Source: Thermoplasmatales archaeon SW_10_69_26
GTDB lineage: Archaea > Thermoplasmatota > SW-10-69-26
Direction of reading: 5' to 3'
Assembly: GCA_003009755.1 (NCBI GenBank)
Contig: PXUB01000032.1
Location: 1 to 64,000 of the forward strand
Length of the DNA stretch: 64,000 bases
Part shown: positions 32,505-47,856 of the stretch, in pieces
Numbering within the stretch: position 1 is the first letter of the stretch
Layout of the letters: every line of letters begins with the position of its first letter
Translations under genes and position numbers: made by a program
Notes under the pieces: model-generated
The model's database searches: none
The model's input: only the letters and a program-made list of their open reading frames with translations
Told to the model about the DNA's origin: nothing

Positions 32505-33647
32505 TCAAAAGCGCCAGTAGCCCTCCCGTTCCCACGGGGGGTCGTCCAGTCGGTCGGCGGCGACGTCGCTGGGCCAGTGATCGAGCCGAGCCTGGCGGGC
32601 CTCCTCGTCGACGAGCGAGGCCACCCGCACGCCCAGCAACCGCACCGGTCGGTCGACGTCGGCCTCGTCGAACAGCTCGAGCACGACGCGCTCGATCACG
32701 TCGCCGTCGTCGGTGGCCGCCGGCAGCGTGCGTTGGCGCGTGAACGTCTCGAAGGAGTGCAGGCGGACCTTGAGCGCGATCGTGCGCCCCTGGTTGTCGG
32801 TGTCGGCCAGCCGGCGCGCGGTCTCGGCCGCGATGGCCCCCAACGCGTCCCGCGCCTTCCCCGGCGTGACGTCCTCGGCGAACGTCCGCTCGGCGCCGAC
32901 GCTTTTCCGCTCGCGCTCGGCCGTGACTGGCCGCTCGTCGTGGCCGCGCGCCAGCTCGACCATGCGCGGCCCCCAGGCCCCGAACCGGTCCTCCATCGCT
33001 TGGGGATCCTGCTCGGCGAGGTCGGCGACCGTCTGGATGCCCATCGGGTCCAGCGCTTCCCGGGTCTTGGGTCCGACGCCGGGGATCTCGTCGGCGTCCC
33101 GCGGCGCCAGGAAGGCTTCCACCTCCGAGGGCTGGACCACGGTGAGGCCGTCGGGCTTGTCCTCGTCGGCCGCGATCTTGGCCGCGAGCTTGTTGGGCCC
33201 GACCCCGATCGAGCAGGTGAGATCGCGCTCGTCCCGGATGCGGCGCCGCAGGGCCTCGGCCAAGCGCTGGGCGGCCGGCCAGTCCCCGTCGACGCGCTCG
33301 GTGACGTCGGCGTAGGCTTCGTCGATCGACACCGGCTCGAGCACGTCGACCGCGTCCCCGACGATGGCGAACACCTCGCGGCTCTCGGCCTCGTAGGCGT
33401 CGAACCGTGGCCGAAGGTAGACGCCGTGGGGGCAGTTGCGCCACGCCTGCGAGATCGGTTGCGCGCTGTGGACGCCGTAGCGGCGCGCCTCGTAGCTGGC
33501 CGCCGCCACGACGCCCCGCCCGCTGCCCTCCTCGGGGTCGGCGCCCACGATCACCGGCTTGCCTTCCAGGGACGGGTCCTCGCGCTGCTCGATCGAGGCG
33601 TAGAAGGCATCCATGTCCAGGTGGAGCACGATGCGGTCCCGGGTCAC
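32505..33647 (-). CDS. dinB: DNA polymerase IV (Y family)
   Basis: HLDMDAFYASIE, SYEAR, SIDEAY, AKIA...KPDG; clamp-like QARLDHW near the C-terminus. Confidence 0.95.
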   Translation of the reverse strand: MTRDRIVLHLDMDAFYASIEQREDPSLEGKPVIVGADPEEGSGRGVVAAASYEARRYGVHSAQPISQAWRNCPHGVYLRPRFDAYEAESREVFAIVGDAVDVLEPVSIDEAYADVTERVDGDWPAAQRLAEALRRRIRDERDLTCSIGVGPNKLAAKIAADEDKPDGLTVVQPSEVEAFLAPRDADEIPGVGPKTREALDPMGIQTVADLAEQDPQAMEDRFGAWGPRMVELARGHDERPVTAERERKSVGAERTFAEDVTPGKARDALGAIAAETARRLADTDNQGRTIALKVRLHSFETFTRQRTLPAATDDGDVIERVVLELFDEADVDRPVRLLGVRVASLVDEEARQARLDHWPSDVAADRLDDPPWEREGYWRF

Positions 33648-33686: not shown

Positions 33687-35027
33687 CTAGGCCTGCCCGG
33701 CGCGCTCCAGCGCGGCCTCGATGGCGTCCTCGATGCCCGCGGATCGCTCGACCGCGTAGGGGGCCGGATCCTCCAACGTGGCTACCTCGGCCGGCAGCGC
33801 CTCGAGCTGGTCGGCGAACCGCTGGCGGGCCACCTGCGTCGCCTTGGCCGGGTCCCGGTAGGTGAGCGGTTCCAAAAGCGGCTGGCCGTTGCCCTCCTCG
33901 TCGACGCGAGCGATCACGTCGCCGATCATGCGGCCGTCCTCGAAGCGTCGGTACACCTGCTTGGCGGCCGGCAGCGTGCGCTTGCCCTCGCTGGTCTTCA
34001 TGACGGGCTCGCCCTCGTAGGCGGCCAGCTTGTAGGAGAGGTTCAGCGAGGGCGCATCGTCGGAGACGACCATCGAGGTGCCGACGCCGAACCCGTCCAC
34101 CGGCGCCCCCTCGGCGAGGATGCGCGCGATCTCGTGCTCGTCGAGCCCGCCGGACACGAACACGTCCACGTCCGCCAGCCCGGCCTCGTCCAGCCGGGCG
34201 CGAGCGCGCTCGGCCTCGGCGACGAGATCCCCGGAGTCGATGCGGACGCCGCCGATCTCCACGCCCTCGTCGGCGAGGTCCTCGGCCAGCTCGATCACCA
34301 TCTCGGTCGCCTGCTGGATGTCGAAGGTATCGATCAACAGCGTCGTGCCGTCCGGGAACGACCGCGCGAAGGAGGCCAGGGCCTCCCGCTCGTCGCCGAA
34401 GGCCTGCACGTAAGCGTGCGCCATCGTCCCGAAGCAGGGGATCTGCATCTCGCGGGCGGCGGACACGAGCGAGGTGCCGGCGAACCCGGCCACGTAGGCG
34501 GCGCGAGCCGCCGCTCGGCCCGCATCGAGGCCGTGGGCGCGCCGCGCCCCGAAGTCGACCATCGCGGCGGAGGCCTCGGCCTGGTCGAGGGCCAGCTGGC
34601 AGCGAGCCGCCTTCGAGGCGATCACCGTCTGCAGGTGGATCGTGTTCAACACGAGCGTCTCGACGAGCTGGGCCATCACCAGCGGGGCCTCGATCTGGAC
34701 GATCGGCTCGTAGGGGAACACCGCCGTGCCCTCCGGCATCGCCCGCACCCGGCCCTCGAAGGAGAACCCGTCGAGGTAACCGATCAGATCCCCCGACAGG
34801 CCCTGCTCCTCGAGGAAGGCCAGGTCCTCGTCGGTGAACGTGAACCGGTCGAGCCGCCGAGCCAGCGCCTGGGTCCCGCACACCGTCAGGAACCCGCGAT
34901 CGGTGGGGAGACCGCGGACGTGCAGGTCGAACACGGCCTCGCCCGTCTGCCCGTGGTCGAGGTAGGACTGAGCCATCGTGAACTCGTACAGGTCGGTGAA
35001 CGTGCCCAGCGGCTCAGCAGGAGGCAT
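33687..35027 (-). CDS. pncB: Nicotinate phosphoribosyltransferase
   Basis: TDLYEFTM, DFGARR, GTMAHAY, LIDTFD, GVRIDSGD, FGVGT, YKL motifs. Confidence 0.93.
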   Translation of the reverse strand: MPPAEPLGTFTDLYEFTMAQSYLDHGQTGEAVFDLHVRGLPTDRGFLTVCGTQALARRLDRFTFTDEDLAFLEEQGLSGDLIGYLDGFSFEGRVRAMPEGTAVFPYEPIVQIEAPLVMAQLVETLVLNTIHLQTVIASKAARCQLALDQAEASAAMVDFGARRAHGLDAGRAAARAAYVAGFAGTSLVSAAREMQIPCFGTMAHAYVQAFGDEREALASFARSFPDGTTLLIDTFDIQQATEMVIELAEDLADEGVEIGGVRIDSGDLVAEAERARARLDEAGLADVDVFVSGGLDEHEIARILAEGAPVDGFGVGTSMVVSDDAPSLNLSYKLAAYEGEPVMKTSEGKRTLPAAKQVYRRFEDGRMIGDVIARVDEEGNGQPLLEPLTYRDPAKATQVARQRFADQLEALPAEVATLEDPAPYAVERSAGIEDAIEAALERAGQA

Positions 35028-35077
35028 CGTGGCCCGGATGCGGTCTCCCTGCCTTGATTTTCGCTGTCCCCCGCCGG

Positions 35078-35093
35078 GTCCCGCCCGTGGGAC
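35078..35093. promoter_or_regulatory. Candidate operator palindrome GTCCCG-N4-TGGGAC between pncB and the aldolase gene
   Basis: Same motif occurs upstream of gap and otsB. Confidence 0.55.
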
Positions 35094-35226
35094 TCGGTGA
35101 AAACCACAACCCCGGACCGCGCCTCGTCCGTGGGCCCCGACGTGATCGCATGCCCGGCCCCCGCTCGCCCACGGCCCCCCGCGAACCACGCCTCTCGACC
35201 GACCCGCCTACCGCGCTCGGTGCACC

Positions 35227-36621
35227 ATGAGCCCGCCCGACCCCTGGTCGAGGTTCCCGGAGGGGGCGCTCGACGCCGTCGAGGTCACCGACGGCCAGGC
35301 CCGCGTCCTCGACGACAAGCGCGTCCGCGAGGACCTGGTCGGTCCGCTGGTCACCGTCGCCACCTTCGCCGCCGGGGAACGCAAGGCCACCGCCCAGGCC
35401 CTGATCCGGTCGTTGGCGCACGAGGTCGGCATCGAGGAGGCCTCGATCCACGAGCTGTACCGCGCCCGGGGACGAGGCGAGGTCGAGGGGTTCACCGTGC
35501 CGGCGATGAACCTCCGCACGATGACCTACGACATGGCCCGAGCTGCCTTCCGCGCCGCCGAGCGCGAGGACGTGGGCGCGCTCGTCTTCGAGATCGCCCG
35601 CAGCGAGATCGGGTACACCGGTCAATCGCCGGCCGAGTACGCCAGCGCCGTCCTCGGCGCCGCGATCCGCGAGGGCCACCGCGGCCCCGTGTTCCTGCAG
35701 GGCGACCACTTCCAGTTCGATCCCGAGGCCGTGGCGGAGGACGCCGACGCCGAGCAGGCTCGCATCGACGACCTCGCCGAGGAGGCGATCGAGGCCGGGT
35801 TCTACAACATCGACGTCGACGCCTCCACGCTCGTCGACCTCGACGAGGCGGACGTGGCCGACCAGCAACGCCCCAACGTCGACCGCACGCTGACCACGCT
35901 GGCCCGGATCCGGTCGCTGGAGCCGGTGACGGTGAGCGTCGGCGGCGAGGTCGGCGAGGTCGGCCTCGAGACGACGACCGAGCCCGAGCTGCGGGTCTTC
36001 CTCGAACAGCTGGACGACGGCTGCCAGCAGCGGGGCCTGGAGGGCATCAGCAAGGCCAGCGTGCAGACGGGCACCCAGCACGGCGGCGTCGTGCTCCCCG
36101 ACGGATCGTTGGCCGAGGCCGACGTCGACGTCGAGGCCGTGCGGCGCCTGTCGCGCCTGGCCCGCGAGCACGGTTTGGCCGGGTGCGTCCAGCACGGCGC
36201 CTCCACGCTGCGGGACGAGCTGTTCGCACGGTTCCCGGAGGCCGGCGCCGCCGAGATCCACCTGGCGACCGCCTTCCTCAACCTCGTCCTCGACCACGAG
36301 GCCTTCCCCGGCGAGCTGACTCGCCGCATCGAGGAGCACCTGGACGAGCATCTCGCCCACCGGCGCACGCCGGAGGCCACCGACGAGCAGTTCGTCTACC
36401 GCCACCGCAAGCGCGCGATGGGAGCCCTCAAGGAGCCGATGTGGCGCGTGGCCGAGGACCGCAAGCAGGCGATCTTCGCCGACCTCGAGGAGCGGTTCTC
36501 GTTCCTCTTCGACGAGCTGGGCGTCACGGGCACCACCGACACGGTCGACACCTACGTCACGCCGGACCCGGTCGAGCCCACCGTCCCCGAAGCGTGGCGA
36601 GCCGACCTCGCGGGCCGGTGA
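35227..36621 (+). CDS. fba: Class II fructose-bisphosphate aldolase family protein
   Basis: FTVPAMNLR, QGDHFQ, IDVDAS, GGEVGEVG, GTQHGG, VQHGAS, EIHLAT motifs. Confidence 0.85.
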   Translation: MSPPDPWSRFPEGALDAVEVTDGQARVLDDKRVREDLVGPLVTVATFAAGERKATAQALIRSLAHEVGIEEASIHELYRARGRGEVEGFTVPAMNLRTMTYDMARAAFRAAEREDVGALVFEIARSEIGYTGQSPAEYASAVLGAAIREGHRGPVFLQGDHFQFDPEAVAEDADAEQARIDDLAEEAIEAGFYNIDVDASTLVDLDEADVADQQRPNVDRTLTTLARIRSLEPVTVSVGGEVGEVGLETTTEPELRVFLEQLDDGCQQRGLEGISKASVQTGTQHGGVVLPDGSLAEADVDVEAVRRLSRLAREHGLAGCVQHGASTLRDELFARFPEAGAAEIHLATAFLNLVLDHEAFPGELTRRIEEHLDEHLAHRRTPEATDEQFVYRHRKRAMGALKEPMWRVAEDRKQAIFADLEERFSFLFDELGVTGTTDTVDTYVTPDPVEPTVPEAWRADLAGR

Positions 36622-36625
36622 TCGC

Positions 36626-37570
36626 GTGCCCGACCGAGAAGAGATCGTCACCCTGACGCTCAACCCGGCCCTCGACCAGGTCTGCTGGGTCGACGAGATC
36701 GAGGAGGAGGTCAAGATCCGCGCCCACGGGTCCTCCTTCGAGCCCGGCGGCGGCGGGATCAACGTCGCTCGCGCGCTGCACCAGCTCGACGTCGAAACCA
36801 CCGCCTACTGGTCCCAGGGCGCCGAGACCGGCCACATGATGGGTCGCCTGCTGGACCAGGAGGGCGTCGACCACCACCCCGTGGACATCGAAGCCACGAC
36901 CCGCGTGAACCTCGCCGTGTTCGCCGACCACAACGGCGACCGCGAGCTGATGTTCAACATGCCCGGCGCCCCCCTCACCGCGGACGAGGTGGACCGTTGG
37001 CTGCACGTCGTCGACGGCATCGACGCCCGGTTCGCCGTCCTCAGCGGCAGCCGCCCGCCCGACAGCGGCCACATCTACGGTCAGATCACGCGCCAGCTCA
37101 CCCGGCGATCGAAGGTCATCCTGGACACCAGTGGCCCGGGCCTCGAGCAAGCCCTCGAGGAGGGGGTGTTCCTCGCCAAGCCCAACCGCGAGGAGCTGAT
37201 CGCCCTCGCCGGCCGGGACGCGGCGACCCCCAGCGGTCTCGAGGCAGCCGCTCGGGACCTGATCGAGACCGGCATGGCCGAGATCGTGGTCGTCTCCCTG
37301 GCCGGCGAGGGGGCCCTGGCGGTGACCGATGGCGGCAGCGTGCGCGTGGATGCCCCGGTCGTCGAAGCCAAGAGCAACGTCGGCGCCGGCGACAGCATGG
37401 TGGCCGGCCTGACGCGCAAGCTCTCGGGCGGGTTCCAAGTCGAGGAGGCGGTCCGCTACGGGGTGGCGGCCGGCGCCGACGCCGCCCGCCGCCCCGGGAC
37501 CGAGCTGTGCACGCGTGACGGCGTGCGAGAGCTACTCGCCGGCACCACGCTGCACCGGTCCCTCCCGTGA
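36626..37570 (+). CDS. pfkB: 1-phosphofructokinase/PfkB family hexose kinase
   Basis: TLTLNPALD, PGGGGINVAR, KPNREEL, VGAGDSMVAG motifs. Confidence 0.9.
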   Translation: MPDREEIVTLTLNPALDQVCWVDEIEEEVKIRAHGSSFEPGGGGINVARALHQLDVETTAYWSQGAETGHMMGRLLDQEGVDHHPVDIEATTRVNLAVFADHNGDRELMFNMPGAPLTADEVDRWLHVVDGIDARFAVLSGSRPPDSGHIYGQITRQLTRRSKVILDTSGPGLEQALEEGVFLAKPNREELIALAGRDAATPSGLEAAARDLIETGMAEIVVVSLAGEGALAVTDGGSVRVDAPVVEAKSNVGAGDSMVAGLTRKLSGGFQVEEAVRYGVAAGADAARRPGTELCTRDGVRELLAGTTLHRSLP

Positions 37571-39379
37571 GCGCAACGCCTCGACGGCCGGCAGATCCTC
37601 GCCCGCCAACGCCGACAACAGGGCACCGCCCGCCAAGGAGACGTGATCGAAGCGATCCCGGGGCACGCCCAGCTGGGTTATCGCCTGCACCGTGTGACCG
37701 CCGCCGATGACGCTGTAGGCGTCGGCCTTGCCGGCGGCCGAGAACACCCGGTGGGTGCCCCGGTCGTAGGGCGTCTCCTCGTAGACGCCCATCGGGCCGT
37801 GCACGAGCAGCGTGCCGGCGTCGTTGGCGTGGTCGGCGAAGCTGTCGGCCGTGTCCTTCCCGATGTCGCGGATCCGGCCCCGGGCCGGCAGCTCGTCGAC
37901 GGGGACCTCGAAACGGTCGCCGTTGCGGTGGACCGCCACGTCGGTCGGCAACCGGATCCGGTCGCCGTAGGTGTCGAAAAGCGAGCGGGCCTGGCGGCCG
38001 TGCTCGCGGTAGCCGTGCTCCTCCAGCAGGGCTCGGGTGCCTTGCCCGGTGTTGACGCCGTCGGCTTCGAGGAACGAGGCCGCCAACAGGCCCCCGACGA
38101 GCACCTCGTCGACCCGGTCGCGCGCCAGCTGGTAGGCCATCGCATCCAGGCTCGCGCCCGGCTTGGCGCCGCCGAGCACGGCCACCCGCGGCTCGTCCTG
38201 GCGGCCGACGCGTTCGAGCGCCTCCAGCTCGGCCAACAGCCCCGGCCCGGCGAGGGCAGGCAGCAGTTCGGGGAACCCGACCAGCGAGGCGTGCGAGCGG
38301 TGGCACGCCGGGAACGCCTCGTTCACGAACACGTCCACCCGCGAGGCCACCGCCTGCACCCAATCGCGCCGGGCGTGCCCGCCGGGGCTGATGTCGGACA
38401 TCTCGCCCTCGGCCCGGCGCACGTTGCCCAAAAGCAAGACCTCGCCCGGCGCCACCGATCCGGCGGCCTCGAGCGCCCGATCGTCGTCGATCGCCTCGAC
38501 GTGGTCGACGGGGACCGCCAGCCTCTCGTCCAGGATCGCGGCGTGCTGGCCCAAGTCGAGGAAGTCCTCGCGCCCGGGGCGGCCTTGGTGGGCGAGGACG
38601 ACGACGCCGGCGCCGCGGTCGAGCAGCGTCTGGATCGTGTCCGCGGCCGCTTGCAACCGATCGCGGCCGACGATCCGGCCGTCCTCGACCGGCTCGTTGA
38701 CGTCCACCCGCAACAGGACGCGTCGATCCGTCAGCTCGGCGTCGTCGATCGTCGCCAGCAACCCGCTGGCGGCCTCGACCTCGGTCGGGGTCGGCGTCGG
38801 CACGCGCGCGCTCCGGCCGTCCTCGGCGTCGGTTCGGATCACGTCCAGCACGCGGCGAGCCAACAGCCCCAGCACCGGCTTGACGAAGCCGGTCCACCGG
38901 CTCAGGCGCTGGCGCCCGGTCTCGTCCAGGCCGCGGGCGCGGGCCTCCAGCACGAGCAGGCAGTTGTCCCCGTGGCGTTCGTGGATCGACAAGGACACCA
39001 CGCCCTTGGCGCCCGAGCCGGTGTGGGCCAGGAACCGTTCGGGGGTGAGGCTCTCGACGAGCTCGAGCGGGTTCCAGAACCGGCCCACGAGCCCGACCAC
39101 GATCTCGCGCCCGGGGGCCTCGGCCAGCGGGACGCAGGCGGGGTGGTCGAGCAGGTCGCCGACCGTCGTGTCGGGGGCGATCGGTTCGCGGTCGCCGGAC
39201 TGGAGGAAGGACAGCGCCATCTGCGGGAGCTCGCGCAGCCACGTGGCCGCGGCCAGCAGCTGGTCGTCGCCGATCTGCGCCGGCCGGATCGCCTCGTAGA
39301 CCTCGTCGGCGGGCGCGTCGACGGCGACCGAGCGCACCAGGCGCACGTCGTCGTCGGGGAGGAAACGATCGTTGAGCAT
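37532..39379 (-). CDS. pgk: Phosphoglycerate kinase fused to an N-terminal SRPBCC/DUF2867-like domain
   Basis: LLRVDVN, AHQGRPG, HRSHASLVGF, GGAK, DIG, GPMGVYE, GGGHT motifs after a ~190 aa extra domain. Confidence 0.88.
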   Translation of the reverse strand: MLNDRFLPDDDVRLVRSVAVDAPADEVYEAIRPAQIGDDQLLAAATWLRELPQMALSFLQSGDREPIAPDTTVGDLLDHPACVPLAEAPGREIVVGLVGRFWNPLELVESLTPERFLAHTGSGAKGVVSLSIHERHGDNCLLVLEARARGLDETGRQRLSRWTGFVKPVLGLLARRVLDVIRTDAEDGRSARVPTPTPTEVEAASGLLATIDDAELTDRRVLLRVDVNEPVEDGRIVGRDRLQAAADTIQTLLDRGAGVVVLAHQGRPGREDFLDLGQHAAILDERLAVPVDHVEAIDDDRALEAAGSVAPGEVLLLGNVRRAEGEMSDISPGGHARRDWVQAVASRVDVFVNEAFPACHRSHASLVGFPELLPALAGPGLLAELEALERVGRQDEPRVAVLGGAKPGASLDAMAYQLARDRVDEVLVGGLLAASFLEADGVNTGQGTRALLEEHGYREHGRQARSLFDTYGDRIRLPTDVAVHRNGDRFEVPVDELPARGRIRDIGKDTADSFADHANDAGTLLVHGPMGVYEETPYDRGTHRVFSAAGKADAYSVIGGGHTVQAITQLGVPRDRFDHVSLAGGALLSALAGEDLPAVEALRSREGPVQRGAGE

Positions 39380-39403
39380 GGGAGGCGGAAGGCTTGACGG
39401 TCC

Positions 39404-40426
39404 TCAAGCGGTCTCCTGATCCCACATGTCCATGACGAGATCCGCGGTGCGCACGCTGTAGCCCCACTCGTTGTCGTACCACGAGAGGACCTTGACCATG
39501 CGCTCCTCGCAGACCTTCAGGCTCGGCGCGTCGACGACCGCGCTGTAAGGGGTCGTCTGGTAGTCGACGCTCACCAGCGGCTCGTCCTCGACGCGCAGGA
39601 TCCCCGCCAGCTCCTCGTCGGCGGCCTCGCGGTAGGCGGCGGTGACCTCGTCGGCGCTGGCGGTGTCGTTCATCCGCACGGTGAGGTCCACGACGGAGAC
39701 GTTGGGCACCGGTACCCGGATCGCCATCGCGTCGAGGCGGCCCTCCAGCTCCGGCATGACGGACCCGATCGCCTTGGCCGCCCCCGTCGAGGTGGGGATC
39801 ATCGAGACGGCGGCGGCGCGGGCGCGCCGCAGGTCGTCGTGCTCCCGGTCGAGGAGGACCTGGGAGTTCGTGTAGGCGTGCGCGGTCGTCACGAGGCCGT
39901 GCTGGATCCCGAACCGGTCGTGCAGGACCTTGGCGGTGGGGCCCAGGCAGTTCGTCGTGCACGAGCTGTTCGAGACGAGGCGATCCTCGCCGGGGTCGTA
40001 GGTGTCGCCGTTGACGCCGAGGACGAGCGTGGCGTCGACCTCGTCCTTCGGCGGTGCCGACAGCACGACGCGGTCGGCCCCGTTGTCGAGGTGGGTCTGC
40101 AGATCCGCGCGGTGCCGGAACTGGCCGGTGCACTCGATCACGTAGTCGACGTCGAACTTGTCCCAAGCCAGGTTGCTGGGATCGGGTTCGGAGAGCACGT
40201 GGAAGTGATCCCCGTCGATGACGAGGTCGCCGTCGACGAGCTCGACCTCGCCCTCGTAGGTCCCGTGCAGGCTGTCGTGCTTGAACAGGTGAGCCAGCGT
40301 CTCGTTGTCGGTCAGGTCGTTGATCGCGGCGATGTCGATCGGGTCCTCGTGGTCCAGCAGCGCCCGCAGCGCCAGGCGACCGATGCGTCCGAACCCGTTG
40401 ATCGCGATCCGAGGAGCCCGCGGCAT
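39404..40426 (-). CDS. gap: Type I glyceraldehyde-3-phosphate dehydrogenase
   Basis: INGFGRIGR, SSCTTNCL, PTSTGAAKA, WYDNEWGYS motifs. Confidence 0.96.
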   Translation of the reverse strand: MPRAPRIAINGFGRIGRLALRALLDHEDPIDIAAINDLTDNETLAHLFKHDSLHGTYEGEVELVDGDLVIDGDHFHVLSEPDPSNLAWDKFDVDYVIECTGQFRHRADLQTHLDNGADRVVLSAPPKDEVDATLVLGVNGDTYDPGEDRLVSNSSCTTNCLGPTAKVLHDRFGIQHGLVTTAHAYTNSQVLLDREHDDLRRARAAAVSMIPTSTGAAKAIGSVMPELEGRLDAMAIRVPVPNVSVVDLTVRMNDTASADEVTAAYREAADEELAGILRVEDEPLVSVDYQTTPYSAVVDAPSLKVCEERMVKVLSWYDNEWGYSVRTADLVMDMWDQETA

Positions 40427-40469
40427 GGCCCGCCGTTGGCCCTGGCTGGAGATTAAGGCTGGTTGCCAG

Positions 40470-40483
40470 TCCCACGCCTGGGA
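40470..40483. promoter_or_regulatory. Candidate operator palindrome TCCCA-N4-TGGGA upstream of the gap TATA-like box
   Basis: Perfect palindrome 44 bp before the ATG; CTTAAT on the minus strand at 40452-40457. Confidence 0.6.
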
Positions 40484-40484
40484 G

Positions 40485-42893
40485 CTAGCGGGCCAAGCGG
40501 ACGCTGTCGCCCTCGCCGATCCGGCGCACATCCTGCTCGAGCCCGATCTCCACCGGATCGCGGCCGGCGGCGTGCGAGGTGACGGCCACCTCGTCCTCCC
40601 GGACGCGTGCCTCCAACAGGTGGCCGCGGTACCGCAGCTCGACGGACACCGACTCCAGCGGGTCGGGGAAGGCGGGGTCGAAGGCGAGCACGTCCTCGGC
40701 GACCGACAGACCGGTGTAGCCGCGCTGCACGAGATCGATCGCGCCCGTCATCGAGCCCAAATGGATGCCCTCGTGCGTGGTGCCACCCTGGATATCCTCC
40801 ACGTCGGCGTCCAGGGCCCGCTGGAACAGCTGCCAGGAGCGGTCCGGGTCCAGCTCGGCCAACGCCCAGGCGTGCAGGAAGTAGCTCAGCGTGGATCCAT
40901 GCGAGGTCCGGTCGATGTAGTACTCCACGTTGCGAGGGATGTGGGCCTCCGGATCGAAGCTGTAGCCCAACCGGTCGAAGATGCCGGCCAACCGGTCGGG
41001 GGAGAACAGGTAGAACAGCATCACCACGTCGGGCTGCTTGGACGCCTTGTAGCGGTTCGCGTCGTCGTCCTCGGCCTCGAGGATGCGGTCCAACCGCTGG
41101 ATATCGTCGTAGCGCTCTTCGTAGCCCTCCCAGTCGAACTCCTCCAACCGGTGGTAGCCCTCGAACTGGCTGACGAGCCCGTCGTCGGCGATCGGGACGA
41201 ACAGGTTGCGGCTCACCTCGTCCCAACGATCGAGCTCGTCGTGCGTGAGCCGCAGCTTCTCCACCAGCTCGGCGCTGCGGTCCTTGGGCAGGATGTCGAG
41301 CACGTCCAGCCCCCGCTCGAGGCACCAGGCGGCCATCACGTTCGTGTACGCGTTGTTGTCCAGGCCCGGCTCGTCGCGCCACGGGTAGCGAGTGTGGTAC
41401 TCGTCGGGGCCGACGACACCGGTGATCTCGTAGGCGCCGCGCTCGTGGTCGTACCCGGCGAAGCTCGCCCAGAACCGAGCGATCGACAACAGCATCTCGG
41501 CGCCGTACAGCGCCAGGAACTCCATGTCGCCGGTCACGTGGTAGTGATGCCAGACGCTGTAGGCGATGGAGGCGTTGATGTGCCGTTGCAAGTGCGTCTC
41601 GTCGGGGATCCAGCGCCCCGAGCGCGGGTTGAGGTGCAGCTGTTGGCTCTCCTCCTCGCCGTTGGAGCCGCTTTGCCAGGGGAACATCGCGCCCTCGTAG
41701 CCCTGCCGGCGGGCGCGGCGCCGAGCCTCGTCGAGGCGGCGGAACCGGTAGCGCAGAAGCGAGCGAGCGATCTGCGGCACGTGGAAGTTCAGCGTCGGGA
41801 ACACGAACATCTCGTCCCAGAAGATGTGGCCGCGGTAGGCCTCGCCGTGCCAGCCGCGCGCCGGCACGCCGACATCGAAGTCGGTCGTGTGGAAGCTGGC
41901 GGTCTGCAGCAGGTGCAAGATGTGCAACCGCAAGGTGCGGGCCACACGGGCCTGCTCCACCGAGCCCGAGACGCCGACCTGCAGCCCGAAGCGACCCCAC
42001 AGGTGCCGCCAGTGCGTCGTGTGCCGGGTGTAGAGGTCCAGGAACCGCGGGGCGCGCGCGAGCTCGCGCTCCACCTCGTAGCCCGGCTCGGACGTCGCAG
42101 GGTCCCGCCCGGTGTACATCGAGCAGATCTTCTCGACGCGCACCGGTCGGCCCTCCCCGACGTGGACCGGGAACCGCTGGCGGACGCGGTCCTCCTCGGT
42201 GTCCGTCTGGCGAGCCGGTTGGATCGGGGATCCGTCGCGGTAGGCCTTCGTGCGAGCGGCTTGGGCCACCCGCACCCGGGAGCGATCGGTGTGGGTGAGA
42301 AGCCGCATCGTTTCGGCGTCCGCCATGTCGGTCCCGATCGGGTCCAGGTGCTGGCTCTCGAGATCCTGGTAGCGTTCGACGTTGGCGTTCTCGACCGTGC
42401 CGTCGATGGCGGTCTCGACCTGGATCTGGCCCGACCAGTCGAGCGGTTCGACGACCATCTGCTGCGCGGCGCGGTGGGGGTTGGCCATGCTGACGATGCG
42501 CCGGTTGACGAGCTTCGTCGTCCGGTCCTGGTCGTCGCGGAAGCGCACGCGGCGCGTCAGCATCGCGGTCTCGAGGTCGAGCACCTTCTCGTAGTCGAGG
42601 ACGTCGACCTCCTCGAGCCGGAACCAGGGGCCCCCGGCGGCGCGGAACGTGATCGGCAGCCAGTTCGGCATGTTGACGAGATCCTCGTTCTGGATCTCCT
42701 GGTCGAGCTTGACCGACGTCTGCCGGTCGTAGCCGCCGGCGAGGTACGTGCCCGGGTAGTGGACGTCGTCGGCGCTGGCCTCCGGCTCGGCACCGCGCGT
42801 GCACACGTAGCCGTTGCCGAGCGTCGTGAGCGCCTCGCGCAGCGGTTGCTCGTCGGGCGAGAACCCGCGGTAGCCGAACGTCCACCCGTTCAC
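40485..42893 (-). CDS. Glycoside hydrolase family 65 (trehalose/maltose-type phosphorylase)
   Basis: LGNGY, ARGWHGEAYRGHIFWDE, GPDEYH, KQPD, HGSTLS, EGIHLG motifs; GTG start overlaps the otsB stop (GTGA). Confidence 0.92.
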   Translation of the reverse strand: MNGWTFGYRGFSPDEQPLREALTTLGNGYVCTRGAEPEASADDVHYPGTYLAGGYDRQTSVKLDQEIQNEDLVNMPNWLPITFRAAGGPWFRLEEVDVLDYEKVLDLETAMLTRRVRFRDDQDRTTKLVNRRIVSMANPHRAAQQMVVEPLDWSGQIQVETAIDGTVENANVERYQDLESQHLDPIGTDMADAETMRLLTHTDRSRVRVAQAARTKAYRDGSPIQPARQTDTEEDRVRQRFPVHVGEGRPVRVEKICSMYTGRDPATSEPGYEVERELARAPRFLDLYTRHTTHWRHLWGRFGLQVGVSGSVEQARVARTLRLHILHLLQTASFHTTDFDVGVPARGWHGEAYRGHIFWDEMFVFPTLNFHVPQIARSLLRYRFRRLDEARRRARRQGYEGAMFPWQSGSNGEEESQQLHLNPRSGRWIPDETHLQRHINASIAYSVWHHYHVTGDMEFLALYGAEMLLSIARFWASFAGYDHERGAYEITGVVGPDEYHTRYPWRDEPGLDNNAYTNVMAAWCLERGLDVLDILPKDRSAELVEKLRLTHDELDRWDEVSRNLFVPIADDGLVSQFEGYHRLEEFDWEGYEERYDDIQRLDRILEAEDDDANRYKASKQPDVVMLFYLFSPDRLAGIFDRLGYSFDPEAHIPRNVEYYIDRTSHGSTLSYFLHAWALAELDPDRSWQLFQRALDADVEDIQGGTTHEGIHLGSMTGAIDLVQRGYTGLSVAEDVLAFDPAFPDPLESVSVELRYRGHLLEARVREDEVAVTSHAAGRDPVEIGLEQDVRRIGEGDSVRLAR

Positions 42894-44440
42894 GAGGGGC
42901 CCTCCAGCGTCCCCGCGATCGCGTCGAGGAAGGCCCGCACCGCCTCGGGGCCGGCCAAGCCGTAGTCCGCGAACGTCGGGCGGCCCTCGCCGCTCACGAG
43001 CACGCCGATCCCCTGCGGGAGCGCGTGGAAGGCGTCCTCGTCGGTGACGTCGTCGCCGACGTACACGACCGGCGTGTGGCGAGGATCGACGTCGAGCTGG
43101 TCGAGCAGGTGCTCGACGGCGCGGCCCTTGTCCCAGTCGACGTCCGGGCGCAGCTCGCGGACCCGCTTGCCGGGCGCGATCCGCAGCTCGGGGCTCTCGC
43201 CGGCCACGGCTTCCACGGTGCCACGCACGCGCTCGACCTGCCCGTCGGGGACCTGGCGATCGTGCACCGCCAGGGAGAACGGCTTGGGTTCGAGCACGAG
43301 CCCGTCCACGTCGCCCAGCTCGTCCTCGATCCGTTCCCGGGCGGCCTCGAGCGCGGGGACGAGGTCCTCGGCGACCCCGTGACGGGTGCGCTCGCCGCCG
43401 GGTTCGCGGATCTCCAGCCCGTGGCTGCCGGCGTAGATCAGCTCGTCGAGCCCGACGCGCTCGCGGACGTCGTCCAGCCCGCGCCCGCTGACGACCGCCA
43501 CCGGGCACCGCTCGGCCAGGCGAGCCACCGCCGCCCGCATCTCGTCGGAGATCGCGGCCCGATCCGGGTGCTCCACGATCGGCGACAGCGTTCCGTCGAA
43601 GTCGAGGAACACGACCGGGCGGTGCCGATCGACGCGCTCGAGGATCTCGTCCGCCGCGAGCGCGTCCGGCCGATCGGCGGGATCGCGGACGGGCACGTCG
43701 ATCTCGTCGAGGCTCGCGACGACGCGATCGGCCCCGCTGTCGGCCAGCGCCTGGGCGTGCCCGACCCGGTCGACACCGACGACGAGGCCGAACCCGCCGC
43801 GCCGGGCGGCCTCGACACCGGCCGCCGAGTCCTCCAGCACGAGGCAGCGCTCGGGCGCCGCCACCATGCGGCGGGCCGTCTCCAACAGCGTCTGGGGCGA
43901 GGGCTTGCCGGCCAGCCCCTCGTCGGCGGCCACGATCCCTCCGACGACGACGTCGAACCGCTCGCCCAGGCCCGCCGCGGCCAGGACCCGGCGAGCGTTG
44001 CGGCTGGCCGAGAACAGCCCCGCCGGGATCTCGGCCTCCGCCAGGTCGTCGAGCAGGGCCGTGGCGTCCTCGTGGACGGTGACGCCCTCCTCGTCGAGCA
44101 GCTCGTGGAAGCGCTCGTTCTTCGCCTCCGCGATCGCTTCCACCGAAGCCAGCCCCGGCTCGTCGGCCGTCTCCGGCAGCTGGATCCCCCGAGACGCCAG
44201 GAAGTGACGGATGCCACGTCGGCGGGGTTTGCCGTCGACGTGCTCGGGGTAGTCCTCCTCGGTGTCGAAGGGCGCCAGGTCCTCGCCCTCCCGCGCGGCC
44301 CGCTCCTCGAGCACCCGATCGAAGATCTCCTTCCAGGCGAACGCGTGCAGCCGGGCCGTCTGGGTGATCACGCCGTCGAGATCGAACAGGACAGCGTCCG
44401 TCGACGCCGGGTCGACCGCGATCCTCGTATCCCGCGACAC
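42890..44440 (-). CDS. otsB: Beta-phosphoglucomutase-like HAD fused to trehalose-6-phosphate phosphatase
   Basis: FDLDGVIT...GKPSP...EDS, then FLDFDGTLSPI, SGR, YAGSHG, WDKG, GDDVTDEDAF. Confidence 0.9.
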   Translation of the reverse strand: MSRDTRIAVDPASTDAVLFDLDGVITQTARLHAFAWKEIFDRVLEERAAREGEDLAPFDTEEDYPEHVDGKPRRRGIRHFLASRGIQLPETADEPGLASVEAIAEAKNERFHELLDEEGVTVHEDATALLDDLAEAEIPAGLFSASRNARRVLAAAGLGERFDVVVGGIVAADEGLAGKPSPQTLLETARRMVAAPERCLVLEDSAAGVEAARRGGFGLVVGVDRVGHAQALADSGADRVVASLDEIDVPVRDPADRPDALAADEILERVDRHRPVVFLDFDGTLSPIVEHPDRAAISDEMRAAVARLAERCPVAVVSGRGLDDVRERVGLDELIYAGSHGLEIREPGGERTRHGVAEDLVPALEAARERIEDELGDVDGLVLEPKPFSLAVHDRQVPDGQVERVRGTVEAVAGESPELRIAPGKRVRELRPDVDWDKGRAVEHLLDQLDVDPRHTPVVYVGDDVTDEDAFHALPQGIGVLVSGEGRPTFADYGLAGPEAVRAFLDAIAGTLEGPS

Positions 44441-44482
44441 GATCCCCCGTTGCCCTCGGGGGCACTATGGGCTGACCCCCGT

Positions 44483-44496
44483 TCCCAGTCCTGGGA
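44483..44496. promoter_or_regulatory. Candidate operator palindrome TCCCA-N4-TGGGA upstream of otsB
   Basis: Perfect palindrome 43 bp before the GTG start. Confidence 0.6.
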
Positions 44497-44596
44497 CTCG
44501 CCGAGCCCGGCGTCCGTTTCCCCTCCGAAACCGTCGCTTGGCCCCACCAGGCGGGCCTTCGCGACCCCCAAGGGCCGGAGCCAGCCATCCGGGGAC

Positions 44597-44932
44597 GTGT
44601 TCCTCGAGCCGGAGGATCCCGGGGTCGACGAGGAGGCCGTTGGCTCGGCGGTGGCCAACCCCTGCGATCGCCAGATCCTGGCCCTCGCCCAGCGGGGCCC
44701 GGTCGCGGCGAAGACGATCCTCGAACGGACCAGCATCCCGAAGAGCACCCTGTACCGCCGCATCGACCGGCTGCAGGAGCAAGGCCTCCTGGAGGTCGTC
44801 TCCTCCACGATCGAGGACGGCCACCGGATCGACCGGTACCGGTGCCCACTGCAAGGGATCGGCATCCGCATCGAGGACGGGGAGATCCACCTCGAGTGGT
44901 CGGCCCGCCGACCCCAAGCCGAGGACGCTTGA
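44597..44932 (+). CDS. ArsR-like winged helix-turn-helix protein
   Basis: RQILA...IPKSTLYRRIDRLQEQGLL...Y. Confidence 0.82.
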   Translation: MFLEPEDPGVDEEAVGSAVANPCDRQILALAQRGPVAAKTILERTSIPKSTLYRRIDRLQEQGLLEVVSSTIEDGHRIDRYRCPLQGIGIRIEDGEIHLEWSARRPQAEDA

Positions 44933-44986
44933 CCAGATGTTCGGCCGACGCAGCCGTTTTCGAGCCTCACCGTCAACGCGGGTACG

Positions 44987-45403
44987 ATGAGCGTCCAGGA
45001 CATCGCCCGAGATCGCGTGGTGACGGCCGACCCCCACACGGCCGCCGAGCAGGTCGCCCGACAGCTCAAGGAGGCCAACGTGGGCTGCGTCGTCGTGACC
45101 GAGGACGGCCAGCCGAGCGGGCTCGTCACCGACCGGGACCTGGTGACGCGGGTCGTGGCCAACCTCGGCGCCGCCAGCGGCCTCACCGCCGGCGACATCA
45201 TGACGCCCGAGGTCGCCACGATCGAGGCCGACCAGGGCATCTTCGAGCTGACCGAGCTGATGCGGCGGCAGGGGATCCGCCGCGTCCCCGTCGTCGACGG
45301 CGGCGACCTCGACGGGATCGTCACCTTGGACGACGTCCACCGGCTGTTGACGACCGAGCTCTCGAACCTCGCCCATGTCATCGAGAAGGAGTCGCCCGCG
45401 TAG
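44987..45403 (+). CDS. CBS domain pair protein
   Basis: GLVTDRDL, DIMT, IRRVPVV, GIVTLDD motifs. Confidence 0.92.
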   Translation: MSVQDIARDRVVTADPHTAAEQVARQLKEANVGCVVVTEDGQPSGLVTDRDLVTRVVANLGAASGLTAGDIMTPEVATIEADQGIFELTELMRRQGIRRVPVVDGGDLDGIVTLDDVHRLLTTELSNLAHVIEKESPA

Positions 45404-45404
45404 G

Positions 45405-46337
45405 ATGATCGAGCGAATCCTCGTCGGGACGGAGGGAAGCCAAGCCGCCGACAACGCCGTCTCGACCGCGCTCCGGCTCGCCCGCGCCGCCGACGCCGAG
45501 ATCCGGGCCGTGCACGCCCGCGAGACCCCGGAGGGTGCTCGACGCCGGTCCGCCGCCGGCCGACAGGTCGCCCACCAGCGCGAACGCGCCGGCGAGCGGG
45601 TGCTCGAAGCGGTCACCGAGCGCGCCGGCAAGGTCGACGTGCCCGCCACGACCGTCATCGACGACCGACCGCCGGCCGAGCTGTTGCTCGCGCAGGCCCG
45701 CGAGTGGGGTGCCGACCTGCTCGCGATCGGGGCCCAAGGCGAAAGCGGGTTCGAGCGAGCGATCCGCGGCAGCGTGGCCGACCAGCTGATCCGCGGCTCG
45801 CCGGTGCCCGTCCTCACCGTGCACCAACCGCCCTCGACCGACCCGCTGGACCCGATCGAGCGCCTGGTGGTGCCCTCGGACGGCAGCTCGGCCGCCCTCA
45901 GCGCAGCGCCGGTCGCCCGCGCCCTCGCCCGAGCCACCGGGGCCCGCCTCGACCTGGTGTTCGCTGTCCCGCCCCGGATCGAAGGCGGCGAGCTGCTGGG
46001 CCCGACCGACGACATCGAGCAGGCCGCCGCCACGCTCGCCGACGACGCCCTGGCCCCCCTCGAACGACGCTACCGGGGGACCGAGATCGAACGCGAGCGC
46101 CGTGTCCGCCACGACGCCCCCCACCGGGCGATCGTCCACCACGCCGACGAGAGGGACGCCGACATGATCGTCATGTCCACCCGCGGCCACGGATCGCTGG
46201 AACGAGTCCTCTTGGGTAGCGTCGTGGACAAGGTGCTTCGAACCTCGAACGTCCCCGTCGTCACGGTCAACCCCCCCGGCGAGGACGACCGCGTCGCCAG
46301 CCCGGAGGGCCAAGGGCCACAGGGAGCGCGGACCTAG
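45405..46337 (+). CDS. Tandem-domain universal stress protein
   Basis: ILVGTEGS...GSVADQLIR...PVL and VPSDGS...LLGSVVDKVLR...PVV. Confidence 0.9.
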   Translation: MIERILVGTEGSQAADNAVSTALRLARAADAEIRAVHARETPEGARRRSAAGRQVAHQRERAGERVLEAVTERAGKVDVPATTVIDDRPPAELLLAQAREWGADLLAIGAQGESGFERAIRGSVADQLIRGSPVPVLTVHQPPSTDPLDPIERLVVPSDGSSAALSAAPVARALARATGARLDLVFAVPPRIEGGELLGPTDDIEQAAATLADDALAPLERRYRGTEIERERRVRHDAPHRAIVHHADERDADMIVMSTRGHGSLERVLLGSVVDKVLRTSNVPVVTVNPPGEDDRVASPEGQGPQGART

Positions 46338-46374
46338 CCTGCCGGACTCGATGTGCCTAACATCTCGCGGCGGT

Positions 46375-46480
46375 CTCGGGAGACCGGCCACGGTCTTCCG
46401 AGAGTACGGGCGCAAGCCCGTGCGAATGAGCGAGTCAAGGTCACGGAGGCCGAAGCAGGAAACCCCCTGCGGGGTTTCGA
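46375..46480. repeat. Dispersed hairpin-rich repeat family A, copy 2
   Basis: Reverse complement of 53-159; abuts a 5'-truncated USP gene. Confidence 0.85.
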
Positions 46481-47217
46481 TGCAGGCCGACGATGAGATG
46501 GGGCGCTGAGGCCGCCGGGTCCTCTCCGACCTCGCCGCGGAAGCCGACGGGTACGGGGTCCCGATCGAGACGACGCTCGCGGAGGGCCAACCCGCCGACG
46601 TGCTGCTCGACGAGGCCGGGGACTGGCCAGCCGACCTGCTCGCTGTCGGGACCGAAGGCCAGGGGGCGCTAGCGCGGGCGATCGTGGGGAGCGTGGCCGA
46701 CCAGGTCGTCCGCTCGGCCCCTCGACCCGTGCTGACCGTGCGCGGGGACCCCGCCACGCCCTCCACGGCCCCGATCGAACGGGTGGTGGTCCCGACGGAC
46801 GGCAGCGCGGCCTCGCGAGCGGCCGCACCGTTCGCGATCGACCTGGCTGCCTCCACCGGCGCCCGGGTCGATCTCCTCCACGCGATCCCACCCCAGCTCG
46901 AGGACGCCGCTCGCGTGGATCGGCCGGCCGCCCAGACCCGACAGATCCGCGAAGAGGTGGTCGAGGCGGCCCTGACCCCGCTCGTCGAGGATTGCCGGCA
47001 GGCGGGCGTCGACCACGAGCGCGTCGTCCGCCGGGCGCGAGCGCGGGAAGCCATTGCGGACTACGCCGACGAGACGGATGTCGACGTGATCGTGATGGCG
47101 ACCCACGGGCGATCCGGCGTCGAGCGGTTCCTGCTCGGCAGCGTGACCGACAAGGTCATCCGATCGACCGACACGCCGGTCGTGACGATCCGCCCCGGCG
47201 ACGCCGCGTGGGCGTGA
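46480..47217 (+). pseudogene. 5'-truncated tandem universal stress protein
   Basis: The USP frame extends upstream of 46600 through an in-frame TGA (46507) to the repeat edge; the first strand and helix of domain 1 are missing; domain 2 is intact. Confidence 0.7.
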
Positions 47218-47232
47218 GGGTCCCGCCGACCG

Positions 47233-47643
47233 TCACCCGCGCTCGAGGGCCTCGGCCGCCTTGTTCGGGTTCTCGACGGCGAACACGCAGCGAAGGGACT
47301 CCTCCTCGCCGTCCATGGCGACGAAGCTGGCTTCGATGTTGATGCCGGCCTGCCCCAGTTCGCTGGACAACCGGCCCAGCTGACCCGGCAGGTTCGGTAC
47401 CGTGACGACGATCGCTTCCCGCGTCTCCGGCGCGAACCCGTCCTCCTCGAGCACGACCGCGGCCTCGTCGGCGTCGTCGGTGACGAGGTGGACCGTTCCC
47501 GGCTCGGTGCCGCGCGCCACCGCGGCGAACCCGAGGATGTCGATGTCCTCCTTGCCGAGCAGCTGGGCCAGGTTCCCCAACGTGCCCGGGCGGTTGGGGA
47601 TCTCGACGACGAACTCCTTGGTCAACCCCACCTTCCTTGTCAT
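47233..47643 (-). CDS. Tandem ACT domain protein
   Basis: PNRPGTLGNL and PNLPGQLGRL...AGINIE motifs. Confidence 0.88.
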   Translation of the reverse strand: MTRKVGLTKEFVVEIPNRPGTLGNLAQLLGKEDIDILGFAAVARGTEPGTVHLVTDDADEAAVVLEEDGFAPETREAIVVTVPNLPGQLGRLSSELGQAGINIEASFVAMDGEEESLRCVFAVENPNKAAEALERG

Positions 47644-47694: not shown

Positions 47695-47856
47695 CCGGCT
47701 GTCTCGTTAAGCAGGGGCCGCGAAGGACACGAAGGATCGCCACGGCCACGAACCTGTGACTCGCCGCCGGGCGGCTTTGGCACGGCAGCTGCTCGCCTTT
47801 GTGCCCTGGCGTCCCGTCGCGTACTTGGTGGCCCCCCGTTTCTCCCTTACAGCGCG
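47695..47856. repeat. Dispersed MITE-like hairpin repeat family B, copy 2
   Basis: Inverted copy of 21273-21440. Confidence 0.85.

Follow-up and report, generated by a model that had tools for sequence, protein, structure and literature searches.

The locus described here lies at positions 33,687 to 47,643 of a 64,000-nucleotide (nt) stretch of contig PXUB01000032.1, called the window below, from the genome of Thermoplasmatales archaeon SW_10_69_26, and it combines genes for a predicted trehalose-6-phosphate (T6P) phosphorylase and a T6P phosphatase (T6PP) with bacterial-type glycolytic genes and genes for putative sensor proteins. Three described systems come closest to it. The first is the DosR regulon of Mycobacterium tuberculosis, which includes, in addition to otsB1, the genes pncB2 and pfkB, the gene for the CBS protein Hrp1 and genes for tandem universal stress proteins (USPs). 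The second is the trehalose pathway of Lactococcus lactis, in which T6P is supplied by a phosphotransferase system (PTS) and no T6P phosphatase is known to take part. The third is the modified Embden-Meyerhof pathway of Haloferax volcanii, which has a bacterial-type glyceraldehyde-3-phosphate dehydrogenase (GAPDH) separate from the gluconeogenic enzymes, together with a PfkB kinase (a 1-phosphofructokinase in that organism) and a class II aldolase (PMC10838023). The archaeal locus resembles it in these three respects at the level of enzyme families.

OtsB1 (Rv2006) of M. tuberculosis is a protein of 1327 aa whose function is given as unknown in PMC11046441. Its domain content, namely a HAD domain, a trehalose-phosphatase domain and a glycoside hydrolase family 65 (GH65) part, is found again in the archaeal locus, with pfkB, pncB, a CBS pair and tandem USPs nearby, although the likeness is one of family and architecture. 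Here, however, the module is split into two overlapping genes that share an operon with a type I gap gene and a pgk gene fused to a likely sensor domain, the host is an archaeon in whose genome a search with PF00196 revealed no DosR-type regulator, and the wider kit is not conserved. The resemblance to OtsB1 pointed out in a first-pass annotation of this DNA is correct with respect to domain content; the three parts do not form a single polypeptide here. Some homologues are split in this way and others are fused, the fused HAD-T6PP-GH65 chains (for example in Nitrosococcus) being 1313-1320 aa long and ranking among the best matches of the archaeal protein. The T6P phosphorylase systems of L. 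lactis, Candidatus Kuenenia stuttgartiensis and Caldithrix abyssi resemble the locus in pairing a GH65 enzyme that acts on T6P (here a prediction) with a HAD protein of the beta-phosphoglucomutase (bPGM) type (PMC11442529, PMC8537180). In contrast to the lactococcal system, the HAD domain is fused here to a phosphatase with intact catalytic motifs, and the operon runs on into gap and pgk.

We tentatively read this stretch, with a probability of roughly 45%, as a lineage-specific bacterial-type glycolytic and T6P locus with neighbouring sensor proteins in a halite-dwelling, salt-in archaeon. GH65 would phosphorolyse T6P to beta-glucose 1-phosphate (beta-G1P) and glucose 6-phosphate (G6P), and the HAD domain would convert beta-G1P to G6P. 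An isomerase of the phosphoglucose/phosphomannose isomerase (PGI/PMI) type, encoded elsewhere, would turn G6P into fructose 6-phosphate, which PfkB would phosphorylate to fructose 1,6-bisphosphate (FBP) and the aldolase would then cleave to triose phosphates. Triosephosphate isomerase (TIM), also encoded elsewhere, would be part of the route, type I GAPDH would oxidize glyceraldehyde 3-phosphate to 1,3-bisphosphoglycerate, and phosphoglycerate kinase (PGK) would yield 3-phosphoglycerate and ATP. This bacterial-type branch would be kept separate from the archaeal gluconeogenic set, which consists of FBP aldolase/phosphatase, a type II-like GAPDH beside TIM, and the first PGK. The first-pass annotation had proposed that the module phosphorolyses a trehalose-type sugar and makes ATP by substrate-level phosphorylation. 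Judged by their predicted functions, the enzymes do lead from such a sugar, in phosphorylated form, to ATP formation by PGK, and this enzymology is plausible. For GH65, PfkB and the aldolase we infer the substrates, and for the whole route the catabolic direction. The main reason why the catabolic, ATP-yielding direction is favoured is that the bacterial-type gapI product of H. volcanii is a sugar-induced catabolic GAPDH (PMC10838023).

The host genome is archaeal, as had been supposed: its 16S rRNA scores 1497.8 bits with the archaeal small-subunit model versus 1108.8 bits with the bacterial one. The genome is 95% complete, and the source stretch is represented in halite metagenomes from two studies. 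With a G+C content of about 70%, plain lists of open reading frames (ORFs) are full of false frames, and genes were therefore called by third-position GC (GC3), the frames chosen in this way being checked against Pfam and NCBIfam. All 12 genes named in the first-pass annotation were found where it had placed them, so its gene list is correct. Its gene descriptions were right as to identity but missed the additional N-terminal domain of PGK, the 5' loss of the second USP gene and the distance of the aldolase from the FBP aldolase (FBA) equivalog. Base composition was considered as an island marker and rejected, as the G+C content stays between 0.68 and 0.73 throughout the window. Neither tRNA genes nor Rfam families were found between 28 and 54 kb of the window.

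The gene order was examined with respect to both assembly and chance. Operon A, on the minus strand, runs from the HAD/T6PP gene through GH65 and gap to the fused pgk, with a 4-nt overlap between the first two genes and spacers of 58 nt (GH65-gap) and 24 nt (gap-pgk). Operon B, on the plus strand, consists of the aldolase gene and, after 4 nt, pfkB, and it is convergent with pgk. Halite contigs from the second study (about 98-99% identity) span the pncB/aldolase/pfkB, pfkB/pgk and pgk/gap junctions as well as the GH65/phosphatase, HAD/wHTH/CBS/USP1 and USP2/ACT junctions (wHTH, winged helix-turn-helix), while no bridging piece for the gap/GH65 and USP1/USP2 junctions was present among the contigs of that study that were listed. 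Because independent contigs span most junctions, the gene order is not an assembly artefact. In tblastn searches the aldolase, pfkB, gap and GH65 genes were single-copy in the genome and pgk was present in two copies; the occurrence of these four genes and one of the two pgk copies within 10 kb argues that the arrangement is not due to chance.

The T6P chemistry is assigned to the first two genes of operon A. The GH65 gene (40485-42893, minus strand), which encodes all three GH65 domains, begins with a GTG codon that overlaps the stop codon of the upstream HAD/T6PP gene. Its closest solved chain is 9lb6 (424.7 bits), named "trehalose-6-phosphate hydrolase" by its depositors; the scores against other solved chains are 339.8 bits for kojibiose phosphorylase, 257 bits for glucosylglycerol phosphorylase and 185 bits for maltose phosphorylase. 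The specificity positions, corresponding to residues 64, 392, 394, 402, 416 and 585 of CsKP, were read from a HMMER alignment to 3wiq and compared with the motifs quoted in the text of PMC8537180. The T6P phosphorylase motif, which was validated by enzyme assay (De Beul et al., PMC8537180), fits at five of the six positions; at the remaining one, 416, an indel makes the reading ambiguous. The motifs of trehalose, kojibiose and maltose phosphorylases do not fit. GH65 is thus predicted to be a T6P phosphorylase.

The first gene of operon A (42890-44440, minus strand; PF02358 and PF00702) encodes a bPGM-like HAD domain fused to a T6P phosphatase. The phosphatase domain scores 164.5 bits with PF02358 and 170.1 bits with TIGR00685 (cut-off 68), and the HAD domain scores 96.8 bits with PF00702 and 58 bits with PF13419. 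HAD motifs I-IV are intact in both domains. Homologues were collected from the 80 best loci of a species-genome collection, all of them bacterial (the genome set). The motif I-IV catalytic residues of the HAD domain are invariant in 64-65 of 66 homologues from these loci, that is, in all that cover the columns concerned, and those of the phosphatase are invariant in 69-71 of 71 genome loci and in 6/6 archaeal loci, that is, in every aligned homologue. Because of the nearest solved chain, the five specificity positions and the conserved motifs, we regard the trio as a putative bPGM-like enzyme, T6P phosphatase and T6P phosphorylase. The HAD/T6PP/GH65 architecture, of which OtsB1 is the best-known representative, is widespread, and a split archaeal copy that is clearly intact and stands among enzymes of known chemistry offers a non-pathogenic system for working out the function of the module.

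Downstream of GH65, the gap gene (39404-40426, minus strand) encodes a phosphorylating GAPDH of the bacterial type I, which exceeds the equivalog cut-off of TIGR01534 (416 vs 367.2 bits) and is the sole type I copy in the genome. The last gene of operon A (37532-39379, minus strand) encodes a second PGK of 615 aa, in which the PGK domain occupies residues 211-594 only; the first, housekeeping PGK is encoded at C2:54025-55218 and is 49% identical. The N-terminal part of the second PGK, about 205 aa (38771-39379, minus strand), has no Pfam match. At E<=1e-3 its relatives number 734 and in most cases stand alone, with a length of about 190-220 aa; among the best 150 listed it is fused to PGK in five Pfam-checked proteins (64%, 50%, 32%, 37% and 49%, the last being a partial match); no match to this domain was found in the PGK of any relative examined. 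In its structural model (pLDDT 88) the top PDB matches are all START/Bet v1-type proteins, with TM scores of only 0.3-0.4. This modelling suggests an SRPBCC-like ligand-binding domain that is likely to act as a small-molecule sensor. The fusion junction is spanned by an independent halite contig, and the locus reveals an uncharacterised PGK family fused to a modelled ligand-binding domain.

Glycolytic and gluconeogenic isoenzymes are split within this genome. An archaeal FBP aldolase/phosphatase is encoded at C16 (579 bits), a divergent type II-like GAPDH at C3:50195-50983, about 1 kb from the TIM gene (region G000:C3:50195-52603), a PGI/PMI-type isomerase at C1, and OtsA, with its own phosphatase adjoining, at C17. 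Searches of the genome for ATP- or PPi-dependent phosphofructokinase (PFK), ADP-dependent PFK, classical PGI and cupin PGI gave no match to PF00365, PF04587, PF00342 or PF06560. The locus therefore holds the genome's only PFK candidate (its only PfkB-type kinase) and its sole type I GAPDH, together with an aldolase outside the gluconeogenic set and the second PGK. It illustrates how an archaeon with archaeal gluconeogenesis can build a bacterial-type glycolytic branch from pieces of different history.

Operon B would provide the two steps between hexose phosphate and triose phosphate. The aldolase gene (35227-36621, plus strand) encodes a 464-aa protein of a divergent class II subfamily, which scores 43.2 bits with PF01116 (cut-off 25.5) and 28.1 bits with PF08013, the GatZ/KbaZ-like family (cut-off 26.7), but only 24.2 bits with the FBA equivalog TIGR01859 (cut-off 343). 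Candidate zinc-ligand histidines are visible by eye, and its nearest Atlas clusters are bacterial "aldolase family" proteins of about 470 aa (TM 0.93-0.94). FBP and tagatose-bisphosphate types are candidate assignments for its substrate. The pfkB gene (36626-37570, plus strand) encodes a PfkB-family hexose-phosphate kinase that passes the subfamily model TIGR03168 (261.3 vs 216.4) and no other: it stays below the cut-offs of the 1-phosphofructokinase, Pfk-2, haloarchaeal pfkB and tagatose-6-phosphate kinase equivalogs (NF007632, 231 vs 353; TIGR03828, 236 vs 292; haloarchaeal NF041320, 167 vs 400). Its best matches are a few close relatives at 98-58% identity, and beyond these they are bacterial, at no more than 47%. 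In these respects the locus differs from H. volcanii, as its pfkB is not the haloarchaeal equivalog and its aldolase belongs to the other, 464-aa subfamily with bacterial look-alikes; moreover, entry would be via the predicted T6P phosphorylase here and is via the fructose PTS there.

Several observations weigh against the glycolytic reading. PfkB and the aldolase, being under every equivalog cut-off, may act on other ketose phosphates, and the HAD domain, with 151.2 bits against a cut-off of 153.35 in TIGR02009, falls just short of the bPGM family. The type II-like GAPDH on the gluconeogenic side matches only two type II models, at 124 bits (NF003251, cut-off 185) and 92 bits, both under their cut-offs. 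OtsA at C17 is the sole T6P source found in the genome, trehalose kinase and PTS not having been looked for. A route that only breaks T6P down would make no use of the T6P phosphatase domain, although the catalytic motifs of this domain do not vary among the aligned homologues. In the bacterial genome set, the neighbour most often seen beside the module is a gluconeogenic enzyme, phosphoenolpyruvate (PEP) synthase, as detailed below. Finally, position alone links the CBS, USP, ACT and wHTH genes to the sugar genes, and it is from position that we infer a connection between sensors and sugar metabolism.

The conserved phosphatase leads to an alternative that we consider rather unlikely, in which the three-domain core, which many bacteria have as a single OtsB1-type chain and this archaeon as two proteins, would make trehalose independently of nucleotide sugars. 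The HAD domain would convert G6P to beta-G1P, GH65 would condense beta-G1P with a second G6P to T6P, and the fused phosphatase would pull T6P on to trehalose, so that two G6P give trehalose and two Pi; GAPDH and PGK of the operon would feed in hexose phosphate by gluconeogenesis, and the product would serve as a xeroprotectant in halite. This is the only reading that places all three conserved catalytic domains in one linear pathway, and such a synthetic pathway would account for their frequent fusion into one bacterial protein. T6P phosphorylases are also efficient in the synthetic direction in vitro, as reported for the Caldithrix enzyme (PMC8537180), for coupled syntheses (PMC11442529) and for a T6P phosphorylase synthesis with 93% yield (PMC13121652). 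However, the genome already has OtsA with an adjoining phosphatase and a dedicated gluconeogenic set elsewhere, the GAPDH of the operon belongs to the type with a catabolic role in haloarchaea, and the locus also encodes the irreversible kinase PfkB, whose gene is found beside GH65 in bacteria as well. No co-mention of "otsB1" and "glycoside hydrolase family 65" was found in the open-access literature searched, and in a filtered subset of it "otsB1" did not occur together with any term for trehalose phosphorylase or T6P phosphorylase; in an abstract of 2026, a T6P route that needs no coenzyme is described as "new-to-nature". If true, trehalose synthesis by the core would give a function to the long-unexplained OtsB1 architecture, namely cheap trehalose synthesis when energy is scarce, and would add one more trehalose route, whose module would have passed from bacteria to archaea several times and become wired here to triose-phosphate enzymes and stress sensors.

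The neighbours of the module in bacteria bear on both directions. In addition to the genome set, a replicate set of 80 metagenome loci was obtained with a different query; clusters of neighbours resembling wrong-frame ORFs (e.g. one of 14 loci) were left unannotated. The HAD part lies beside GH65 in 67/80 loci of the genome set and 62/80 of the replicate set, and the phosphatase part in 71/80 and 33/80, respectively. By clustering and Pfam, the neighbours in the genome set include PEP synthase (15 loci, median distance 155 bp), TreZ-like proteins (13), MalQ (8), P-type ATPase (7), glucan phosphorylase (6), OtsA (5) and a NarL-type regulator (5). The gluconeogenic and trehalose or glucan genes in this list favour synthesis of trehalose, as does a metagenome-assembled genome (MAG) of the Polyangiales (L029:6621-13917), in which gap, the PEP synthase gene ppsA, GH65 and HAD/T6PP follow one another on one strand. 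However, the association with PEP synthase drops to 3/80 in the replicate set, where OtsA is found in 6/80.

Other members of the archaeal locus recur beside the module in single cases. In the genome set, tblastn found pfkB in 8, USP in 7, pncB and gap in 2 each, and pgk and CBS in 1 each of the 80 loci, and the aldolase, the wHTH protein, the ACT protein and the PGK N-terminal domain near the module in none of the 80. The corresponding counts in the replicate set are 3 for pfkB, 3 for USP, 4 for CBS and 0 for pncB. As an immediate same-strand neighbour of the module or of GH65, pfkB was seen in 6/80 genome loci (L011, L022, L050, L063 and L070; L153 in the metagenome set). A Syntrophales MAG (L070:5261-12379) has a tandem USP gene, pfkB, HAD/T6PP and GH65 on one strand, and a Binatia MAG (L051:8450-16232) has the module followed by pgk and gap, again on one strand. 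Across the 160 bacterial and metagenomic loci, pfkB, USP, gap/pgk and pncB are beside the core in only 1-10%. The association of dormancy-like items with the module is thus real in single cases and rare overall, in counts that have no null and concern common families.

The bacterial origin of the GH65 module and its patchy spread among archaea emerged from the homologue searches and from a tree. A word-limited search scored 8000 GH65 homologues, and two contig scans confirmed 527 and 445 relatives. The homologues are 52-56% identical and bacterial where named, apart from one 70%-identical cluster, some of whose members come from JGI contigs 5-16 kb long; these contigs were not among the results of the metagenome scan, in which all loci are at most 54% identical. 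GH65 is present in 3/40 relatives and in 6/400 other sampled genomes of the archaeal phylum (43-55% identity). HAD and T6PP are kept beside it in all 6/6 other archaeal loci, where none of gap, pgk, pfkB and USP lies beside GH65 within the DNA at hand and one locus has a CBS gene. A quick, midpoint-rooted FastTree phylogeny was built from 86 sequences, with the best 80 bacterial loci sampled and L064 left out for a stop codon inside its match. The window GH65 clusters with that of a genome of the same family, G004 (support 100), and the sister group of this pair comprises halophilic alphaproteobacteria, one member of the Nitrospirota and a gammaproteobacterium (support 95). Since the seven archaeal rows require at least four label changes, the tree fits several transfers of the module from bacteria to archaea, one of them before the split of the window and G004 genera. 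The encoded proteins are acidic (isoelectric points of 4.3-5.2, except for 6.3 in USP1) and the GC3 of GH65 is 0.94, so the transfer was not recent.

The remaining sugar genes and pncB have other histories. The aldolase occurs in 0/5 genomes of the same family but in 6/15 of the same class (40-49% identity), pfkB in 2/40 relatives and type I gap in 11/40 (best 63%), while pgk is present in every genome and in two copies in the host. The pncB gene (33687-35027, minus strand), encoding nicotinate phosphoribosyltransferase (NF006696, 525.4 vs cut-off 503), is divergent from the aldolase gene and has orthologues in 4/5 same-family genomes (56-60% identity), never beside other genes of the locus. 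The DNA polymerase IV gene dinB (32505-33647) lies 39 nt downstream in the same direction, so the two are probably co-transcribed. By these orthologues pncB is vertically inherited within the family, and it is probably a resident housekeeping gene rather than a member of the sugar unit. In eight related genomes, no other genes of the locus were found around the homologues of gap, pgk, aldolase and pncB, except for a pgk-wHTH pair in G004. In that genome the module (L136, G004:C72, 7-3071) runs off the end of its contig, and at the start of another contig (L097, G004:C197) there is a further pgk copy (51%), after which come a homologue of the wHTH gene (55%), a gene resembling multicopper oxidases and one more wHTH gene; the operon may continue across this assembly gap. 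The island proposed in the first-pass annotation is therefore not supported: the synteny search showed that only the three-domain core is kept, in 6/6 archaeal and most bacterial loci, and the component genes do not share one history. The locus is a lineage-specific mosaic and not a transferable island.

These different distributions might also mean that the stretch is a coincidence of four units without common function or control, namely the pncB-dinB housekeeping pair, an aldolase-kinase pair of the tagatose-6-phosphate/fructose-1-phosphate type, the T6P module with a widespread gap-pgk pair, and a stress-protein operon. Each unit is distributed differently among the relatives, four further genomes from the phylum (G026, G028, G032 and G038) have gap and pgk side by side without GH65, and the relatives with the aldolase are without pfkB. 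The aldolase also passes its GatZ/KbaZ-like threshold, and its best PDB match is the GatZ chain 2fiq. Against this, one pathway requires PFK, a non-gluconeogenic aldolase and type I GAPDH in succession, and for all three the genome has candidates in this locus alone. Unrelated bacteria also have pfkB, USP, and gap or pgk beside the module, each in some loci, and the arrangement in G004 suggests that within the family the module is inherited along with pgk and wHTH. We therefore hold a mere coincidence to be unlikely.

Operon C, on the plus strand, is divergent from operon A and contains the genes for the wHTH protein, the CBS protein and USP1, a repeat copy and a remnant of the gene for USP2. 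The 156-nt region between the two operons (44441-44596) presumably holds their promoters and an operator. The wHTH gene (44597-44932) has a GTG start and encodes a small regulator of 111 aa (HTH_20, 36 bits; MarR_2, 31.5; TrmB, 27.3). It is followed by the gene for a stand-alone CBS-pair protein of 138 aa (44987-45403; PF00571, 92.5 bits in two stretches), which the gene for USP1 (45375-46337; 320 aa; PF00582, 186.6 bits, two domains) overlaps by 29 nt. The second tandem USP gene, USP2 (46510-47217, plus strand; PF00582, 176 bits), is truncated at its 5' end and encodes about 1.6 domains. On the minus strand and convergent with it, an ACT-pair protein of 136 aa is encoded at 47233-47643 (PF01842, 47.9 bits in two stretches; ACT_8, 24.5 bits). 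The wHTH-CBS-USP-USP operon, the ACT protein and the SRPBCC-like domain of PGK are likely to represent a regulator acting locally and sensors of small molecules. The genome has three tandem USP genes that are paralogues with 44-48% identity, two at 45375-47217 and one at G000:C26:30844-31677. At E<=1e-20, homologues of USP1 were found in none of 20 relatives from the family and class, and its paralogues were found in the host genome only.

The first-pass annotation had taken everything between pncB and the ACT gene, both included, as one co-regulated dormancy or hypoxia set, equivalent to part of the DosR regulon and under an archaeal regulator. There is overlap at the level of families with the DosR set (pncB, pfkB, the OtsB1 architecture, a CBS pair and tandem USPs). 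Four of the 13 USP-domain matches of the genome fall in the window, the habitat is halite, where water stress is expected, and one or more of the items (USP, pfkB, NarL-type regulator, P-type ATPase, pncB or CBS) are near the module in 25/80 bacterial loci, at least two of them in four loci. However, this figure has no null and concerns common families, the replicate counts given above are lower, and the six other archaeal loci have no such neighbours except for the one CBS gene. In addition, pncB is vertically inherited and paired with dinB, USP1 is without a close homologue in 20 relatives, one USP gene is damaged by a repeat insertion, and neither a DosR-type regulator nor a shared operator was found. 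In some unrelated bacteria pfkB and USP do stand directly beside the module, but the whole cluster was not found elsewhere. This interpretation is very unlikely in our opinion, and on present evidence a dormancy island common to mycobacteria and archaea is an analogy only. The first-pass interpretation is thus partly supported overall, and the term "regulon", like "island", is not.

With regard to regulation, a whole-genome search with PF00196 (GerE) gave only two hits, both marginal, with scores of 25.1 and 22 bits, which lie on C17 and C1 and thus outside the window, GAF/HisKA_3 kinases not being searched; this agrees with the statement in the first-pass annotation that no DosR homologue is present. 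No inverted or direct repeats were found in the 156-nt divergent region, and the repeat search revealed no motif shared among four intergenic regions beyond chance. As a candidate for a shared operator, an 8-base word with two copies in the divergent region was considered and rejected: the window contains it five times versus 3.0 expected, and 17 of 100 shuffles reach five. One further copy of this word sits inside a dispersed repeat. Among the public sequencing runs listed as containing this DNA, no RNA run was found.

A complete copy of a dispersed repeat of about 170 nt (46338-46509, by blastn) takes the place of the 5' end of USP2. USP2 is without the first third of its first domain (the first 50-60 codons or so), and its likeness to USP1 extends upstream across an in-frame TGA codon at 46507-46509. 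This 172-nt spacer repeat has 31 non-self matches in the genome by blastn, those listed being 83-95% identical, and the contig depth at it is very high in halite metagenomes. An internal start may still allow expression of USP2.

Another dispersed repeat, about 145 nt long, is located at approximately 47695-47845, between the ACT gene and a DsbA-like gene. It has 48 non-self matches in the genome, with contig depths of hundreds to thousands in other halite metagenomes. About 2.5 kb past the ACT gene, a fragment of a transposase of the IS1595 family (ISXO2-like) is present at 49653-50228.

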